Shown piece by piece: positions 3,449-51,510 of a stretch of DNA of 64,000 nucleotides; positions within the stretch are counted from its first letter, which is position 1, and the number at the start of each line of letters is the position of its first letter. The DNA is taken from assembly GCA_049516595.1 (NCBI GenBank), contig JBEKSY010000015.1, forward strand, positions 2,938 through 66,937, read 5' to 3'. This stretch comes from Anaerolineales bacterium (GTDB lineage Bacteria > Chloroflexota > Anaerolineae > Anaerolineales > RBG-16-64-43). The notes below the pieces were generated by a model, which saw only the letters and a program-made list of their open reading frames with translations, was not told the DNA's origin and made no database searches. A program made the translations under genes and the position numbers.

Positions 3449-3805
3449 TCAGCGGGGTAACCCATCACCCGGGATTCCAAACCAGGGGTGGATCTCGTAG
3501 ATCAAGCGGCCGGCCTTGACCGCCGGGTCTTCCTCCAGCAGTTGCCGAACCTCATCCTCGTCCGTGGCCGCGAAGATCCCTATGCCCCGCAAGCTCCCTT
3601 CGTCCGTCACGGGCCCGTTGAGGAGCAGCTTTCCCTCCGCCCGCAACCAGAACAGGTGGCGCAGGTGCTCCATTTGCAGCCGATCGGCCTCGGCGGGCGG
3701 CAGATCTCTGTGTGGCCCGGTTTTGTAGAGGAAGGCGGTGTATTGCCTTCCCGATGCGACCTTCTTCCGAATGGTCTCATCCGTGATCTCTGCTCGTGAC
3801 CTCAT
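3449..3805 (-). CDS. YciI family protein
   Basis: EHLRHL...GKLLLNGP...EDPAVKAG...EIHPW pattern (His/Asp dyad). The probable start is MRSRAE at 3805. Confidence 0.8.
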   Translation of the reverse strand: MRSRAEITDETIRKKVASGRQYTAFLYKTGPHRDLPPAEADRLQMEHLRHLFWLRAEGKLLLNGPVTDEGSLRGIGIFAATDEDEVRQLLEEDPAVKAGRLIYEIHPWFGIPGDGLPR

Positions 3806-4240
3806 TCGAGCGGCTCCTTGCTGAGAAGTGGACCGACTTTCAATATCACGGCAATCCTGTCCCCGAGTCACCCAACAGATACAAATAACCCGTCCTGGCA
3901 TGCGAGAGCGGCTCTACAAAACGGCAGGTTGAGCCACGGCGGATTGGCAGATCCGGAGGGCATTGATCGGTGGTGGCACGTTCGTCTTTCCATTATTATT
4001 AGACCATAGTGGGCCGGGGGCCTGGGCACGAGCGGGTTGTGCCTGAGATTGCCTGGAGGGCAGGTCCCACTGGGCCATGGGGCGGCGAAAGGGAGCGGAA
4101 ATCTCACCCGAACCCAGCAGACGCCTCTGCGGCGCGGATGGGTCAGAGCACTCGGGGCAGGGCCCATCCGACGGACATCCAGGCGCTGCCACCAGCCCAT
4201 CGGGGACACACTTCTTTGCAAGATAGACGGAGACCAATCG

Positions 4241-4984
4241 ATGACCATTCCAGATATCCCCACCGTAGCCGAGGTAAGTGGAAAGTCCAGGAGTGGGATT
4301 AACTACCACATCTTGGGGACTGTGCAGCAGACATTGGCCGTGGATTTGCAGCCCGGCCAGCAGGTCTACACCGATGCAGGTGCCATGTCTTGGATGACCG
4401 CCTCGGCCAGCATGAACACCAGTTCAGGGGGAGGACTGGGCGGGATGCTCAAGCGGGCCGCGTCCGGGGCGACTGCCTTCATCATCAATTTCGCGGCCTC
4501 GGGCGAACCCGGCCAAGCCGCATTCAGCACCGATTTCCCCGGCAAGATCCTGCCGGTGGAACTGGACGCCGGGCAGTCCATTGTGATGCACAAGCACGCG
4601 TTTCTGTGCGCGGAGAAGAGTGTCACTCTGGACGTTTTCTTCACCCGGAAGCTGGGGGCGGGTTTCTTTGGTGGAGAGGGTTTCATCCTTCAGAAGCTGA
4701 CCGGACCCGGGATCGCATTCGGCGAGCTGGATGGGGACGCCGTTGAGTACCATCTGAAATCGGGCGAGGTCATGAAAGTCGAACCCGGCCACGTGGCCAT
4801 GTTTGAAGCGACGGTGGCTTTCGATATCGAGATGATCAAGGGAATGACCAACATTCTGCTCGGAGGAGAGGGGGTATTCCTGGCCACGCTGAAGGGCCCT
4901 GGGCGGATCTGGCTCCACTCGATGACGGTGAGCAAGATGGCTCACCGCCTGGTGGAGTATCTGCCGGCCAAGTCGAGTGGATGA
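4241..4984 (+). CDS. TIGR00266 / AIM24 family protein
   Basis: VYTDAGAMSWM, GGEGFILQKLTGPG and GGEGVFLATLKGPGRIWLHSM repeats. Start at the ATG at 4241. Confidence 0.9.
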   Translation: MTIPDIPTVAEVSGKSRSGINYHILGTVQQTLAVDLQPGQQVYTDAGAMSWMTASASMNTSSGGGLGGMLKRAASGATAFIINFAASGEPGQAAFSTDFPGKILPVELDAGQSIVMHKHAFLCAEKSVTLDVFFTRKLGAGFFGGEGFILQKLTGPGIAFGELDGDAVEYHLKSGEVMKVEPGHVAMFEATVAFDIEMIKGMTNILLGGEGVFLATLKGPGRIWLHSMTVSKMAHRLVEYLPAKSSG

Positions 4985-6631: not shown

Positions 6632-8452
6632 TCAGGTCCCTTGGGTGAGCCATGAGGGAGCATTGATGGAGGCCAACGACTGGTGGCGGAAATAGGTGTT
6701 ATACAGTTCGGCATACAGCCCGCCCTGGGCCATGAGCATTTCGTGGGTCCCCATCGCCACGATTCGCCCCCGATCCATCACCACAATGCGGTCCGCGTGT
6801 CTAACCGTCGAGAGACGGTGGGCGATCACAATCGAGGTCCGGTGGCGCATCACCCTGCTCAACCCTTCTTGAATCTGCGACTCGGTGAATGGATCGACGC
6901 TCGCGGTGGCTTCGTCCAGGATTAGAATCGCCGGATTCTTGAGAAGCACGCGCGCCAGCGCCACCAGCTGCCTCTGCCCCATCGAAAGGTTCGAACCCCG
7001 CTCGCCCACATCGGTGTCCAGACCCTGCGGCAGGTCTTCAATCCAGTCCCCTGTGCTGATGTGCATCGCTGCCTGGATCACCTCGTCCCGAGTCACCTGG
7101 GGCTTTCCATAGCGGATGTTTTCCTGCACTGTGCCTGAGAAAAGGAACGGGTCCTGCGGAACCAAGCCTACGTGGGAGCGGTATTGGTCAAGATCCAGCC
7201 GGCGGATATCGCGGCCATCGATCAGGAGCTGCCCCGACTGAAATTCATAGAAGCGCAGGATCAGGTTGGCCACGCTGCTCTTTCCTGCCCCCGTATGGCC
7301 TACGAGGGCGATAGTCTCTTGCGGCCGAATCTCGAGGGAGTAGTCCGGGAGGACAATCTCCCTTCCGGTGTAGGTGAAGCCAAGATGACGGAACTCGATC
7401 CTCCCTTCGACCCGGTCTACGGGTTCCGAGGCGACCTGGCTCACCTTGGGTTCCGTGTCGATCAACGCGAAGACACGCTCCGAGGCCGACAGCCCGTCCT
7501 GAAACTGGCTCCAGAAGGAAGCAATGCTCATCATCGGGAAAAGATAGAAACCCACCGCTTGCATGAAGAGATACCAATCCCCCGGCGTGACTGCGCCGGT
7601 ACGGACGGAAAGACCGCCCGCATAGACCAGCAGAGCAATCCCCAAGCCGGAGGTCAATCCCATGATCGGGAAGATCGTGTCGAGCGTGATGCCTCTCCGC
7701 ACGCCCACCTGATACGCCTGGCGGTTGTTGGTCTCGAAGGTGTTGTAGATAGCGCGCTCCTGGCGGTAAGCCTTGGCGACCATGATCCCGCTCACGGATT
7801 CCTGAATCTGGGCATTGATCTTGGCCGTCACGCGCCGCGCGTGCTGGGTTACCTGCCGCGCGATCCGTCGGAATCCCAAGGCAATCGCCGCCGCGATTGG
7901 TGCCATGGCGACCAGCAGGAGAGCGAGCTTCCAGCTAACATGGAGGAGCCAAACGGTCAGCAATGCAACCAGGAGCACCTGGCTGATGAGACTCACCACC
8001 AGCGAGACCACATCAGAGAAGTCCTGGGTGTCCGAGGTGACGCGGCTGACAATCTTCCCGGAGGCATGCTCTTCGAAGAAGGACAGATCATGCCGGATTG
8101 TAGCGTTGAAGACGTCTTCCCGCAGCCTGAGGACGACGTTTCCGACGACGCGCGCCGAGACCCATTGCTGGATGAAATTCATGACCCAGCCCAAAAGGCC
8201 CAGCCCCAGGACGGCCCCGGCCAAGAGAAGCATCTCGCGGGTGCTGGGATTCCGTGCCACCACGTCAAGGGTCTGGGAAATGACAATCGGGCCGCCGGAG
8301 CCCGCGATGGAGTTGAGCGCGATCACGAGCGCAATGATGGCCACCTGGAGGGTATAGGGCTGGAAGTAGGCGATGATCCGAGCCAGCAGATCCCGATCTC
8401 GGTAATTGCGGTCGTAGGGCTCAGATTCCAGTCCGTCGAGAATAAAACCCAT
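6632..8452 (-). CDS. ABC exporter, fused permease/ATPase (heterodimer subunit)
   Basis: TMD plus NBD: Walker A GHTGAGKS, degenerate signature LSMGQRQ, Walker B LILDEATA. Confidence 0.95.
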   Translation of the reverse strand: MGFILDGLESEPYDRNYRDRDLLARIIAYFQPYTLQVAIIALVIALNSIAGSGGPIVISQTLDVVARNPSTREMLLLAGAVLGLGLLGWVMNFIQQWVSARVVGNVVLRLREDVFNATIRHDLSFFEEHASGKIVSRVTSDTQDFSDVVSLVVSLISQVLLVALLTVWLLHVSWKLALLLVAMAPIAAAIALGFRRIARQVTQHARRVTAKINAQIQESVSGIMVAKAYRQERAIYNTFETNNRQAYQVGVRRGITLDTIFPIMGLTSGLGIALLVYAGGLSVRTGAVTPGDWYLFMQAVGFYLFPMMSIASFWSQFQDGLSASERVFALIDTEPKVSQVASEPVDRVEGRIEFRHLGFTYTGREIVLPDYSLEIRPQETIALVGHTGAGKSSVANLILRFYEFQSGQLLIDGRDIRRLDLDQYRSHVGLVPQDPFLFSGTVQENIRYGKPQVTRDEVIQAAMHISTGDWIEDLPQGLDTDVGERGSNLSMGQRQLVALARVLLKNPAILILDEATASVDPFTESQIQEGLSRVMRHRTSIVIAHRLSTVRHADRIVVMDRGRIVAMGTHEMLMAQGGLYAELYNTYFRHQSLASINAPSWLTQGT

Positions 8453-47730: not shown

Positions 47731-49503
47731 TCAGCCCGACACCTCCGCCGCTTCCCCGGCCAGGGCGCGACGCAGAGAGGTCTGCAGTTCAAGCACGCGA
47801 GACACCAGACGATTCGGCGGGACCAGCTCGGTCAGCCCCGTCGTTCGAAGTCGAAGTTCCACCCCGCCCTGGGCCAGCGCACGCTTCGCCACGGTCAACC
47901 GGATTGGCACCCCAATCAGGTCGGCATCCGTGAATTTGACCCCGGGGCTGTCCGCACGATCATCATACAAGACTTCGACCGAGCTCGCTCGCAGGTCCTC
48001 ATACAATGCCTCGGCCACCTCACTGGGTTTTCCCGAGGCATCCTGCAGCAGCACGAGATGAACTGTAAAGGGGGCCACAGTGATGGGCCAGCAAAGACCC
48101 AGCGAGTCGTGATGCTCCTCCGCAATGCACGCCAGTAGACGACCCACGCCAATACCATAGGATCCCATGAGAAGCGGTCGAAGGCTCCCCTGGGAGTCCA
48201 GGAAGGTGCATCCCAGCCGCGCACTGGTGCGGGAGCCGAGCTTGGACATGTTGCCAACCTTGACACCTCGCTGGGCGGATAGAGGAGCTCCGCACTTGGG
48301 ACAAGGGCTGCCGTGCTCCGCGGCGGCGATGTCGGCAACCACGTCCGCCCGGTAGTCCCGACCCAGATTGACATTGAGGAAGTGAAACCCCTCCTCGTTG
48401 GCTCCCGCCACCAAGTTTGGGGATTCGGCCGCGATCTCATCGACCACAATCAGTGCCTGGGTCACCCCAATAGCAGAGGCATACCCCGGTACCGCGCCAA
48501 CAGCGCGGATTTCCTCGACCGTGGCGGGCCGCACCTCTCGAGCTCGGATGGCATTGGCAAGCTTGGTTTCGCTAAGGTTCATATCTCCGCGGACGATCAC
48601 AAAGACGAAGCGCTCCTCGGGTTCCCCCTGGGCCCCCGTAGCGATCAGGAAAATCGCCTTGGCGGTCCGGGAGGGAGGAATCTCAAGCAGGGCGGCCAAC
48701 TCTTCAATGGTGCTCGCCTCCGGGGTAGCCACCTTGGCCAGGGGCTTGGGAAGCTCGGAGAGGGCCGGGAGCCTGCCAACGCGCGCAACCTGTCGATTGG
48801 CCGAATAACCGCATTCTCCGCAGCGCAAGATCGTATCATCTCCGATCGATGCCAGGTAGATGAACTCATGGGCCAGATTCTCTCCCATCAGGCCCACATC
48901 GGCTTGAACGGCAACGGCAGGCAACCCGCAACGCCGGAAGATATGGGAGTAGGCCTGCATGTGCGCCCGGTATTGACGGTTTAGGCCGTCGTCATCAGCG
49001 TCCAGACTGTAGCTGTCAAGCGTGGTGAATTCACGAGCACGAATGAGGCCGGCCCGAGGGCGAGGGTCATCGCGCCACTGGGTTTGAATGTGATAGAGCA
49101 GCTGCGGGAGCTGGCGGTACGAGCGGAGCTCCCGTCGCGCCAGGTCCGCCACGACCTCCTCATGGGACATGGCCAGCACCAGGTCATGACCACTTTTGTC
49201 TTTGAGACGGCCCATTTCCGGGCCAATATCGTACCAGTGGCCGGTTTCCTTCCACAGATCGGCCGGATGGACGACGGGCATCAGGATCTCTTGACCCCCG
49301 ATGGCATCCATCTCCTCACGCATCAGTCGCTCGATCTTGTCGAGCGAGCGCTTGGCTAGGTGCAGGTAGGTGAAGATGCCCGCTCCGAGCGGACGGAGGA
49401 AGCCGGCCCGGACAAGGAGACGCTGGCTGTCGACTTCGCTGTCTGCGGGGGGATCCCGCAGGGTCTGAGTCAATAGGCGGCTGACTTTCACAGATCCGGC
49501 CAC
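47731..49503 (-). CDS. proS: Proline--tRNA ligase, bacterial type with INS editing domain; divergent active site
   Basis: Overall ProRS layout: LVRAGFLR, HEE, RPRAGLIR.REF, INS domain with GANEEGFH, MGSYGIGVGRL and anticodon domain KFTDADLIG. Several consensus catalytic residues are changed (see findings). The true start may be GTG 49491. Confidence 0.85.
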   Translation of the reverse strand: MAGSVKVSRLLTQTLRDPPADSEVDSQRLLVRAGFLRPLGAGIFTYLHLAKRSLDKIERLMREEMDAIGGQEILMPVVHPADLWKETGHWYDIGPEMGRLKDKSGHDLVLAMSHEEVVADLARRELRSYRQLPQLLYHIQTQWRDDPRPRAGLIRAREFTTLDSYSLDADDDGLNRQYRAHMQAYSHIFRRCGLPAVAVQADVGLMGENLAHEFIYLASIGDDTILRCGECGYSANRQVARVGRLPALSELPKPLAKVATPEASTIEELAALLEIPPSRTAKAIFLIATGAQGEPEERFVFVIVRGDMNLSETKLANAIRAREVRPATVEEIRAVGAVPGYASAIGVTQALIVVDEIAAESPNLVAGANEEGFHFLNVNLGRDYRADVVADIAAAEHGSPCPKCGAPLSAQRGVKVGNMSKLGSRTSARLGCTFLDSQGSLRPLLMGSYGIGVGRLLACIAEEHHDSLGLCWPITVAPFTVHLVLLQDASGKPSEVAEALYEDLRASSVEVLYDDRADSPGVKFTDADLIGVPIRLTVAKRALAQGGVELRLRTTGLTELVPPNRLVSRVLELQTSLRRALAGEAAEVSG

Positions 49504-49741
49504 CGCGACCGCTCAAGAAAGTCCGGGGCTCCAAGGCGCATTCCGTTCCCGACCCCCTTCCCCGGCTACCCCCCCTGGCGGCACACCCGGGCTCCTGGCA
49601 CATCGCGTTTCGGTTGAAGAAGCCTTTTAGATTCCCAGTAAGCGATTATAACTGGCCTTCGCCTGGCGGAGGTTCTTGGCAATTGAGATCTGCCATGCAA
49701 GAGGAATTGCTCAGGGCAACTCCCGGTGGTATTATGGGCGC

Positions 49742-50614
49742 GTGAGACTCCCCATCGCCCTCGCTCAGATATCCACTTCCCTCGGTAACGTTGCCGGGAA
49801 TCTCAAGAAGCACATCGAGCTCGCCAGGAAAGCGCGTCGACAGGGAGCTGAGCTCATTCTCTTTCCTGAGCTCTCTTTGACCGGCTACGTCCTGCAAGAT
49901 CTCGCCTCAACGGTCGCCTGCCGTCCGCAGGCAGACGACCCCGTCTTCTCCGATCTCCTGCGCGAGAGCATGAAAATCGACATGGTGGTCGGGTTCGTCG
50001 AGGAGGACTGCAGAAATCGATTCTTCATCTCGGGCGCCTACCTTTCGAGGGGACAGGTCCTTCACGTGCACCGAAAGGTCTATCTGCCCACCTACGGCCT
50101 GTTCGATGAGGGACGCTTTTTCGCCTGGGGAGACCAGATCCGGGCCTTTGACACGCGCTTTGGGCGGATGGGCATATTGATCTGCGAGGACTTCTGGCAC
50201 GCCTCGCCTCCTTACCTTCTCTGGCTGGACGGCGCCGACGTCCTGCTGTTCATGTCGTCCTCCCCGGGTCGCGGCCTGCACCAGAAGGGGGTCCTGGAAA
50301 GTGCCTGGTGGGTGGAGCAGGTCAACCAATCCTACGCCAGTCTTTTCACCTCCTTTGTGGCCCACATCAACAAGGTGGGCTTCGAAGATGGCCTAAACTT
50401 CTGGGGTGGCTCCACGGTGTTTGACCCGAATGGGCACCGGCTGGTTCGCGCTCCATTCCACGAGGAGTCCCTGACCCTGGCGGATTTGGACCTCAATCAA
50501 CTTCATCGCACGCGAGCGAGGCTGCCCCTTCTTCGTGATGAGCGCACGGGGCTCGTAATGCGCGAATTGCAGCGTGTTCTGGCGCAAAGCGGACGGACAA
50601 ACAACATTCGGTAA
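49742..50614 (+). CDS. Carbon-nitrogen hydrolase (nitrilase family), probable glutaminase partner of NadE
   Basis: Catalytic triad FPELSLTG / HRKVYLP / ICEDFW. It lies directly upstream of nadE. GTG start at 49742. Confidence 0.88.
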   Translation: MRLPIALAQISTSLGNVAGNLKKHIELARKARRQGAELILFPELSLTGYVLQDLASTVACRPQADDPVFSDLLRESMKIDMVVGFVEEDCRNRFFISGAYLSRGQVLHVHRKVYLPTYGLFDEGRFFAWGDQIRAFDTRFGRMGILICEDFWHASPPYLLWLDGADVLLFMSSSPGRGLHQKGVLESAWWVEQVNQSYASLFTSFVAHINKVGFEDGLNFWGGSTVFDPNGHRLVRAPFHEESLTLADLDLNQLHRTRARLPLLRDERTGLVMRELQRVLAQSGRTNNIR

Positions 50615-50670
50615 ACCCCCCGACTCCTCGTGCCAGCAGGACCCATCGCTTTCTGGCTCGCCCGTGGGAG

Positions 50671-51510
50671 ATGACCATGCGCGACTACCTTCCTCTCCTC
50701 CAAATCGATACAGATCTTGTGCGCAAGATCCTGGTCTCCTTTCTGCGGCAGGAGATCGAGCGCACCGGCCTGGATGGGGCGGTCGTGGGAGCGTCTGGCG
50801 GGGTCGACTCCTCCCTTTCCTGCTTTCTTTGCGCTCAGGCCCTTGGGCCCGAGAAGGTCCTGGCCGTCCTGATGCCCTACCGCACGTCCTCTCCGGATTC
50901 CCTGGCAGATGCTCAAGAGGTCGTGCGGCTCACGGGCGTGAACAGCCTGACGGTTGAGATCACCTCCATGGTGGACCCTTTCTTGGAACAGTTCCCGGAG
51001 GCGGATCAGCGCAGGCGGGGGAACGTCATGGCGCGCGCGCGCATGATCGTCCTCTACGATCAGTCGGCTGCCCACGGCCGGATTGTGGTTGGGACCGGCA
51101 ACAAGACGGAAATCCTGCTGGGCTACACCACGCTTTATGGGGACGCGGCCTGTGGGCTGAACCCGATCGGCGATCTGTACAAGAATCAGGTGCGGCAATT
51201 GGCGCGTGCGCTGGGTGTTCCAGATCGCATCCTCACGAAGGCTCCGACCGCTGATCTGTGGCGCGGTCAGACCGACGAGGGTGAGCTGGGCTTTGCCTAT
51301 GATGATGTCGACCAACTGCTCTACTTACTGGTGGACGAACGCTACAGCCCCTCGGAGTGTGTGGAGGCCGGGTTCGATCGCGGGTTTGTAGACACGGTTG
51401 TCGAGCGCATTCGGCAAAGCCAGTTCAAGCGGGTACCGGCTCCCATCGCCAAGCTCAGCGACCGAACGATCGGATACGACTTCCTCTATTTGCGTGACTG
51501 GGGCACATGA
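50671..51510 (+). CDS. nadE: NAD+ synthetase (single synthetase domain)
   Basis: SGGVDS, GNVMARARM, GTGNKTE, YTTLYGD and PTADLW.GQTDE. Confidence 0.95.
   Translation: MTMRDYLPLLQIDTDLVRKILVSFLRQEIERTGLDGAVVGASGGVDSSLSCFLCAQALGPEKVLAVLMPYRTSSPDSLADAQEVVRLTGVNSLTVEITSMVDPFLEQFPEADQRRRGNVMARARMIVLYDQSAAHGRIVVGTGNKTEILLGYTTLYGDAACGLNPIGDLYKNQVRQLARALGVPDRILTKAPTADLWRGQTDEGELGFAYDDVDQLLYLLVDERYSPSECVEAGFDRGFVDTVVERIRQSQFKRVPAPIAKLSDRTIGYDFLYLRDWGT

Follow-up and report, generated by a model that had tools for sequence, protein, structure and literature searches.

We analyzed a stretch of 64,000 nucleotides (hereafter the window) from an Anaerolineales bacterium (GenBank assembly GCA_049516595.1, contig JBEKSY010000015.1), which carries a gene for a bacterial-type prolyl-tRNA synthetase (ProRS-B). 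The open reading frame (ORF) is uninterrupted, lies on the minus strand at 47731..49503 and comprises 590 codons plus the stop; its likelier start is the GTG at 49491 (codon 5), since two orthologs, P0002 and P0003, begin at the equivalent of that codon. In Pfam searches, the class II core tRNA-synt_2b is interrupted by tRNA_edit, the INS editing domain, and followed by HGTP_anticodon, the anticodon-binding domain (ABD). The protein scores 620.1 bits against NCBIfam NF006625 (bacterial-type proline--tRNA ligase; cut-off 558), for which sequences with intact catalytic motifs reach ~690-760 bits, and 517.9 bits against TIGR00409 (cut-off 306.7). The closest solved structures are the ProRS of S. 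aureus, E. faecalis, and P. aeruginosa, and an AlphaFold model of the window protein superimposes on the E. faecalis enzyme (2J3L) with a TM-score of 0.81-0.84. The features of the gene are as follows:

47731..49503, minus strand: whole ORF, bacterial-type ProRS paralog (Pfam, NCBIfam)
48820..49503, minus strand: N-terminal part of the catalytic domain (aa 1-228), with motif 1, the TxE loop (S113-H-E115), motif 2 (Q142, R144, D146, F159, T161, L162), and the proline-binding loop (aa 202-209, E208 inside; roles from the MtbProRS structures, PMC13629369)
48289..48819, minus strand: INS editing domain (aa 229-405; Pfam PF04073 over aa 260-380)
48658-48660, minus strand: K282 of INS
48472-48486, minus strand: G340..A344 (GXXXA) of INS
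48382-48384, minus strand: H374 of INS
48094..48288, minus strand: C-terminal part of the catalytic domain (aa 406-470), with K415, S420, T426 (replacing Tyr), and motif 3 with R455
48259-48261, minus strand: K415, at the position of the metal/ribose Glu
48244-48246, minus strand: S420, at the position of the conserved Phe
47734..48093, minus strand: ABD (aa 471-590; Pfam PF03129)

Catalytic-site substitutions in the window ProRS-B

An earlier note on this DNA, made from the sequence alone, had described the gene as a ProRS with several substituted active-site residues and an intact editing domain. We aligned the window protein with its 119 best database relatives, all Anaerolineae or Chloroflexota ProRS, and defined as conserved the 244 positions with at least 95% identity across 117 other Anaerolineae ProRS. 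The window protein deviates at 30 of these 244 positions, while five sampled canonical sequences deviate at 0-3. By domain, the deviations fall at 17/122 positions in the N-terminal and 6/32 in the C-terminal part of the catalytic domain, 5/64 in INS, and 2/26 in the ABD. All of the substitutions listed in the note are seen in the alignment: SGRW to TGHW (R89H, the Thr itself being normal for the lineage), QTK to QTQ (K142Q), REFxMKD to REFTTLD (M161T and K162L), MGG to MGEN (G208E), and GIEVG(H/N)IFKLG to GVKVGNMSKLG (E415K, I419M, and F420S, with loss of the metal/ribose Glu and of the Phe). To these can be added T113S in the TxE loop, Y426T, M205L, and others. The guess that WRDD in motif 2 is simply normal for the lineage was right, judging by the 117 Anaerolineae ProRS, and the same holds for LAM-T-HEE (Pro to Met), the Asn (N418) in GVEVGN, and MGSYG in motif 3, all of which depart from the general bacterial consensus.

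The Glu and Phe at positions 415 and 420, replaced by K415 and S420 in the window protein, are each 99% conserved in the 117 relatives. The proline-binding loop of the lineage reads G-M-M-G-G, with the Gly at 208 also 99% conserved, and is altered in the window protein by M205L and G208E. R144 of motif 2, R455 of motif 3, the TxE Glu (E115), the adenine-stacking Phe (F159), and E213 are kept.

Structures of the M. tuberculosis enzyme (MtbProRS) assign roles to many of these residues. With Pro-AMP bound, Glu422 of G-I-E-I-G-H touches the ribose and, together with His425, steadies the metal on the alpha-phosphate, and Phe427 stacks against His425; Met159 is a wall of the ribose pocket; the proline-binding loop, which closes over the substrate, consists of residues 200-207; Thr111 and Glu113 of the TxE loop grip the proline amino group; and Arg142, Glu144, and Phe157 (motif 2) as well as Arg462 (motif 3) make the phosphate and adenine contacts (PMC13629369). 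In the motif alignment, K415 of the window protein is equivalent to Glu422, S420 to Phe427, T161 to Met159, and S113 to Thr111, and E208 lies within the proline-binding loop. Judging from the structure, replacement of a metal-binding carboxylate by lysine should cripple adenylate formation, and proline activation by the window protein is probably poor or nil.

The odd residues are confined to the window protein and its two orthologs, P0002 (90% identical, genome G002) and P0003 (88% identical, an assembly from SRA data). The consensus residues are already found in the next relative, P0004 (68% identical), and in every other sequence, so the possibility raised in the note that these residues are standard in functional ProRS of the clade can be set aside. 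In the tree, the three genus sequences form one clade (SH-aLRT 100, stem 0.42) inside the canonical Anaerolineales ProRS-B clade. A sequencing or assembly artifact is ruled out, as the same derived states are present in the independent genome G002 and in the independent SRA assembly (L047), with synteny kept. On the alignment and the tree, the catalytic changes are derived and genus-specific.

The three orthologs do not agree with each other at the key positions. In the order window protein, P0002, and P0003, residues 89-90 are H-W, R-R, and R-G; residue 205 is L, W, and R; residue 208 is E, A, and A; residue 415 is K, K, and Q, the Gln being that of P0003; and residues 425-426 are R-T, G-S, and G-S. 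Different residues at the same key positions point to a lifted constraint rather than to a newly selected specificity. An altered amino-acid specificity, one of the options of the note, was rejected as the leading idea on these grounds: the derived residues are not common to the three orthologs, which differ at the same normally invariant catalytic positions.

A second ProRS, other editing factors, and constraint on the domains

The source assembly (3.3 Mb, 74 contigs, 93% complete) contains a second ProRS, and the window gene is thus not the only proS of the genome; a sole proS is what the note had named as a finding that would count against its reading. This canonical archaeal/Thermus-type enzyme (ProRS-A) is encoded on contig 30 (G000:C30:19375-20781; L006 1498..2931, minus strand) and scores 539 bits against TIGR00408 (cut-off 437). 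Its 477 aa, with a C-terminal Tyr, can be aligned over the full length to T. thermophilus ProRS 1H4Q (584 bits); ProRS of this type do not possess the INS domain. ProRS-A is most likely the housekeeping enzyme of this genome. It was also found in both congeners. Contamination is an unlikely source of the gene, given its presence in all three genus genomes with a synonymous divergence (dS) that matches that of the window's genes.

The only other gene with a tRNA_edit fold above the Pfam cut-off in the genome encodes a free-standing INS-like protein of 169 aa (G000:C39:11781-12140; L057 1432..1941, minus strand). Its nearest counterpart is T. thermophilus TTHA1699 (PDB 2CX5; E = 1e-39), and its score is far under the YbaK equivalog cut-off; 2CX5 is the ProXp-x representative in a 2024 review (PMC11295145). 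Both congeners, and likewise the three further relatives that were searched, have tRNA_edit-fold matches of like score. Neither a ProXp-ala nor a YbaK was detected in the genome, nor any other editor for Ala-tRNAPro. A weak tRNA_edit match (21 bits, under the cut-off) at G000:C8:112318-112557 contains two in-frame TGA codons and may be a relic of an INS-like gene or noise. Three ordinary tRNAPro genes (CGG, GGG, and UGG anticodons), with C1:G72 and A73, were identified using Aragorn.

The editing domain of the window protein was said in the note to be intact. This stands for the hydrolytic signature, with K282, H374, and G340-Y-A-S-A344 in place. It does not stand for one residue, the Pro of the INS loop GXXXP, which is found in 100% of the 117 relatives and is replaced here (P344A). 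The signature residues of INS and ProXp-ala are a Lys (Ec K279/Cc K45), a His (Ec H369/Cc H130), and GXXXP/A, the last being the published signature of active ProXp-ala enzymes (bioRxiv 10.1101/2020.09.11.293571). The ABD, described in the note as normal, indeed keeps the canonical pattern of constraint and has only two fixed changes, both conservative (E518D and K551R). By itself, INS does not discriminate between tRNAs and needs the ABD to read G35/G36, and full-length E. coli ProRS deacylates pre-formed Ala-tRNAPro (PMC3973320).

We then compared the ratio of non-synonymous to synonymous substitution rates (dN/dS) between domains. Between the window gene and that of G002 (dS 0.19), dN/dS is 0.26 overall, 0.33 in the catalytic domain, 0.18 in INS, and 0.22 in the ABD; against the SRA ortholog, the values are 0.37, 0.17, and 0.19 for the same domains. 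The C-terminal catalytic part (aa 406-470) reaches 0.44-0.52 between the window gene and either ortholog, and INS is at 0.09 between the two orthologs. For comparison, ProRS-A has a dN/dS of 0.106 (G000-G002) and 0.081 (G000-G001), and recognizable neighboring genes lie at ~0.1-0.3. The catalytic domain, at 0.33, departs from neutrality (p = 4e-6), which indicates that the window gene is not drifting neutrally. No frameshifts, no stops, and no dN/dS near 1, as would mark a pseudogene, were found: the 590-codon ORF is intact in three lineages, with a dN/dS of 0.26. Used alone as proof, the domain-wise dN/dS is suggestive only, and it is the test of the site pattern that bears the argument.

At the protein level, the normal ranking of the domains is reversed. 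In canonical pairs (n = 245, 5-20% divergence), the ratio of catalytic to INS divergence has a median of 0.54 (5th-95th percentile 0.36-0.79), while within the genus it is 1.8-2.0. For the site test, positions were binned by their conservation in canonical ProRS, and the fraction varying among the three genus sequences was counted in each bin:

Catalytic domain: 24/153 sites conserved at >=95%, 10/72 of medium conservation, 10/63 least conserved
INS: 2/64 sites conserved at >=95%, 5/55 of medium conservation, 7/58 least conserved
ABD: 0/26 sites conserved at >=95%, 3/30 of medium conservation, 11/60 least conserved

Variability in the catalytic domain is flat across the conservation bins, which indicates that the old profile of constraint is gone there, while that of INS and the ABD persists. 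For the highly conserved sites, the difference between the catalytic domain (24/153) and INS plus ABD (2/90) has a Fisher p of 0.0009.

Loss in a congener and eroded ProRS-B copies across Anaerolineae

The window proS is the first gene of a minus-strand string proS, NfeD, SPFH/Band_7, and the CN-hydrolase and NAD-synthase genes diverge from it on its other side; this gene order is identical in the two orthologous loci. The CN-hydrolase (glutamine-amidotransferase-type) and NAD-synthase genes (49676-51510, plus strand) are adjacent separate ORFs and not a fused NadE, an order also kept in the orthologous loci. A scan for promoters and terminators gave nothing informative.

G001, the third genus genome (96% complete), has the flanking genes in synteny, with a DNA identity of 77-81% and ~0.7 kb between them. 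In this interval, between the CN-hydrolase and NfeD genes (L053 about 3620-4330; G001:C3, about 7220-7930), what is left of proS is a degenerate stretch matching residues 19-81 (38% identity) and a piece of the ABD that is out of frame. Both the catalytic core and INS are missing, and the remnant qualifies as a pseudogene. G001 retains ProRS-A and the ProXp-x-like gene.

Among 41 close relatives, 36 have a ProRS-A above the cut-off, and in most the ProRS-B is full length and canonical-looking. Six of the 41, from four families, encode instead a shorter, divergent ProRS-B derivative in which the TxE loop and motifs 2 and 3 are eroded or deleted and INS and the ABD are well conserved. We extended the survey to 201 evenly chosen genomes of the class. 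ProRS-A was above the cut-off in 148 of them and ProRS-B in 102; another 66 had only sub-cut-off ProRS-B matches, which form a continuous range from 552 to ~240 bits, a few of them being contig fragments. Comparing the tables by inspection, the listed genomes without ProRS-A have a high-scoring ProRS-B (about 640-755 bits). The eroded copies accompany a ProRS-A, except in four fragmentary metagenome-assembled genomes (G071, G105, G198, and G199).

The alignment of 17 intermediates reveals a stepwise loss of the catalytic motifs, with GxxPGYASPVG and NVNYGRD of INS staying in place. Degeneration is already present above the NF006625 cut-off: several copies among L060-L076 (G066, G179, G137, G145, G048, G094, and others), with scores of 567-635 bits, no longer have the Thr/His of the TxE loop, the Glu that binds the metal, or residues of motif 3. 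Far along the series is a large and well-conserved Anaerolineales family of ~400 aa (L048:1531-2739 in G033; proteins P0121-P0240), for which the precomputed Pfam matches are tRNA_edit and HGTP_anticodon only. Its best 120 clusters have about 390-440 aa (nearly all <410) and are 63-98% identical to the query. Every one of the 120 cluster representatives has the INS Lys, Gly..Pro, and His, and the positions of the metal Glu and the motif 3 Arg are not conserved. Members are annotated as proline--tRNA ligase, YbaK/EbsC family, or hypothetical protein.

In the tree, the eroded groups stand apart from the clade of the window protein, and for one eroded pair the sister is a near-canonical sequence, a placement that suggests several independent erosions of ProRS-B, their exact number being left uncertain by the long branches.

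A separate observation concerns L035 (G024:C90), a ProRS-B with a near-canonical catalytic site that is seemingly split near the start of the ABD into two adjacent frames; its sister group in the tree consists of the strongly eroded family f3 copies.

A candidate trans-editing role and its alternatives

The reading that we favor, with moderate confidence and on the strength of comparative sequence data, is that of a redundant ProRS-B whose aminoacylation is being lost and which is kept on as a trans-editing deacylase specific for tRNAPro. The ProRS-B of the window would have become redundant because the organism also has a complete ProRS-A, which is without an editing domain. Within the genus, the aminoacylation site would then have escaped selection, with alterations of the proline-binding loop and of the ribose/adenine pocket, while the catalytic domain would still be held as a folded scaffold; the INS hydrolytic signature and the ABD have stayed under ordinary purifying selection. 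The ABD would grip G35/G36 of tRNAPro, and the INS pocket would hydrolyze the Ala-tRNAPro set free by the editing-less ProRS-A; together, these steps would amount to trans-editing, as by crenarchaeal ThrRS-ed for ThrRS-cat. The window protein would no longer contribute meaningfully to prolylation, and the clearing of ProRS-A's Ala-tRNAPro by an ABD and an INS domain carried on a dimeric class II scaffold would be the reason for its retention. A trans-editing or tRNA-binding role was among the options of the earlier note, and the constraint kept in INS and the ABD favors it; the decaying copy, another of its options, is still a live rival.

Several points weigh against this proposal. The Pro replaced at position 344 is invariant in the 117 relatives and also in the ~400-aa family, and editing could be weaker in the window protein. 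R144, R455, E115, and F159 are all kept and the NCBI ProRS cut-off is passed, so that some residual aminoacylation is possible. The contrast in dN/dS between the catalytic domain and INS plus ABD is marginal when taken alone (Fisher p = 0.12 for one pair and 0.025 for the other), and the three genus sequences are close kin, so that the counts of variable sites reflect few independent events. The reduction of the gene to a remnant in G001 implies that its function is dispensable. Model confidence does not help either: the AlphaFold model of the window protein has a mean pLDDT of 78.9, with INS and the ABD above 85 and values below 50 in two catalytic loops (residues 76-112 and 141-160), but in the canonical control P0004, modeled from the same 50-sequence alignment, the motif 2 loop is of low confidence too and residues 70-110 reach only ~60. 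The pattern is not diagnostic against this control, and pLDDT was dropped as a readout of catalytic decay.

The main rival explanation is that the gene has no function left and is on its way to loss, the conservation of INS and the ABD reflecting only the short time since constraint was lifted. The G001 slot, which holds a degenerate match to the N-terminal ~60 codons and the out-of-frame ABD fragment, fits this well, as do the whole-gene dN/dS of 0.26-0.27, ~2.5 times that of ProRS-A, the replaced INS Pro, and the presence of a ProXp-x-like deacylase in all three genus genomes. However, neutral drift would give stops or indels, and the ORF is intact in three lineages at a dS of ~0.2; the dN/dS of INS (0.17-0.18) and the ABD (0.19-0.25) is inside the range of neighboring genes, even the catalytic domain is well under neutrality, the canonical site-by-site pattern of constraint persists in INS and the ABD, and many other Anaerolineae lineages kept INS and ABD long after the catalytic core was lost. 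We therefore consider pure decay unlikely, if still a serious contender. The arguments are different for a working ProRS with an odd active site, perhaps a second enzyme of lower activity, stress-specific, or insensitive to an inhibitor. Duplicated aminoacyl-tRNA synthetases that confer resistance or a stress-specific function are well known (PMC9437257), and the passing of NF006625 and TIGR00409, the kept R144, E115, F159, E213, and R455, and the fit of the predicted fold to 2J3L would all be expected of such an enzyme. It would have to work without the metal/ribose Glu, which is Lys here and Gln in P0003, and without a 99%-conserved Gly of the proline-binding loop, which is Glu here and Ala in the orthologs. 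In addition, the 24 normally invariant catalytic positions that differ among three sequences 88-90% identical speak of lifted constraint and not of a new optimum, and the gene is deleted in a congener; we regard this explanation as improbable.

Least probable, in our view, is a neofunctionalized enzyme that activates another substrate or charges a special tRNA. Several pocket residues have changed, and ProRSx, which pairs with tRNAProA, demonstrates that ProRS-B duplicates can gain new tRNA partners (PMC9437257). Yet the three orthologs do not share the new residues, the ABD is canonical with 0/26 conserved sites variable in the genus, the three tRNAPro genes are ordinary (the inspection for proline identity elements did not extend to tRNAs of other anticodons), and the neighbors, NfeD/SPFH and NAD-synthesis genes, offer no biosynthetic context.

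The retained trans-editing deacylase that we favor can be placed among known systems. The window protein has the three-domain architecture and fold of the bacterial-type ProRS-B with INS (E. faecalis 2J3L/2J3M, S. aureus 5ZNJ, and M. tuberculosis), to which it is about 38-40% identical, with the Arg residues of motifs 2 and 3, the TxE Glu, the INS Lys/His, and the ABD kept. Unlike in these enzymes, its metal/ribose Glu, Phe, loop Gly, and motif 2-region Met and Lys are replaced and variable in the genus, and it is not the only ProRS of its organism and is deleted in a congener. The nearest parallel is the crenarchaeal pair of ThrRS-ed and ThrRS-cat, as far as it is summarized in the 2024 review (Korencic et al. 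2004, cited in PMC11295145). ThrRS-ed is likewise a paralog in which the editing and anticodon-binding domains are preserved, it coexists with a separate catalytic enzyme devoid of editing, and trans-hydrolysis of mischarged cognate tRNA, the role proposed here for the window protein, is its task. It belongs to another synthetase family with another editing fold (ThrRS editing domains and not INS/YbaK), and the catalytic domain of the window protein is, in contrast, full length and only mildly eroded, its function being proposed here from sequence.

The window INS shares its hydrolytic fold and its Lys/His/GXXXP/A signature with ProXp-ala, a free-standing INS homolog that deacylates Ala-tRNAPro and occurs in organisms whose ProRS is without INS. 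ProXp-ala is a single-domain protein that reads G72/A73 of the acceptor stem, whereas the window protein would use the ProRS ABD (PMC3973320). Apart from INS itself, members of the INS superfamily are single-domain proteins according to the 2024 review (PMC11295145). ProRSx of Streptomyces is also a duplicated bacterial-type ProRS with a non-housekeeping role, and the sole ProRS entry in a 2022 review of duplicated synthetases (PMC9437257), but it still works as a synthetase, and its change lies in the tRNA partner, while in the window protein the ABD is canonical and the catalytic site has changed. The other eroded Anaerolineae ProRS-B, including the ~400-aa family, share with the window copy their ancestry, their occurrence beside ProRS-A, and the conservation of INS and the ABD. 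In them, the TxE loop, motif 2, motif 3, or the bulk of the catalytic domain is gone; the window copy is at the mild end, and on the tree it represents a separate, recent erosion. No editing-only ProRS paralog was found in full-text literature searches, which did not cover subscription journals.

A broader proposal, on which we are evenly divided, is that redundant ProRS-B have been converted repeatedly and independently into tRNAPro-specific trans-editors in those Anaerolineae that use an editing-less ProRS-A. These would form an undescribed class of two-part proofreaders, an INS hydrolase with an ABD guide, as the ProRS counterpart of ThrRS-ed, with the nearly intact window copy at the stage of birth and the ~400-aa INS plus ABD proteins at the far end of the series. 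To the graded series found across the class, the window adds an early, still full-length stage in one genus that also includes a congener with a deleted gene.

These results bear on annotation, as the curated ProRS cut-off lets through the window copy and several degenerate relatives, which bear the name proline--tRNA ligase, and the more eroded ones are named inconsistently. Since copies above the cut-off are already degenerate, automatic annotation as proline--tRNA ligase is unreliable in Anaerolineae. The genus offers a rare early snapshot of the passage from synthetase to pseudo-synthetase: the first to go are the metal-binding Glu, the proline-binding loop, and the ribose pocket, constraint persists on the scaffold, the editing site, and the anticodon reader, and outright loss of the gene occurs in parallel. 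If the trans-editing proposal is true, proline-codon fidelity in a large and abundant class of bacteria would hang on a trans-editing factor that is missing from the catalogs of the INS superfamily.

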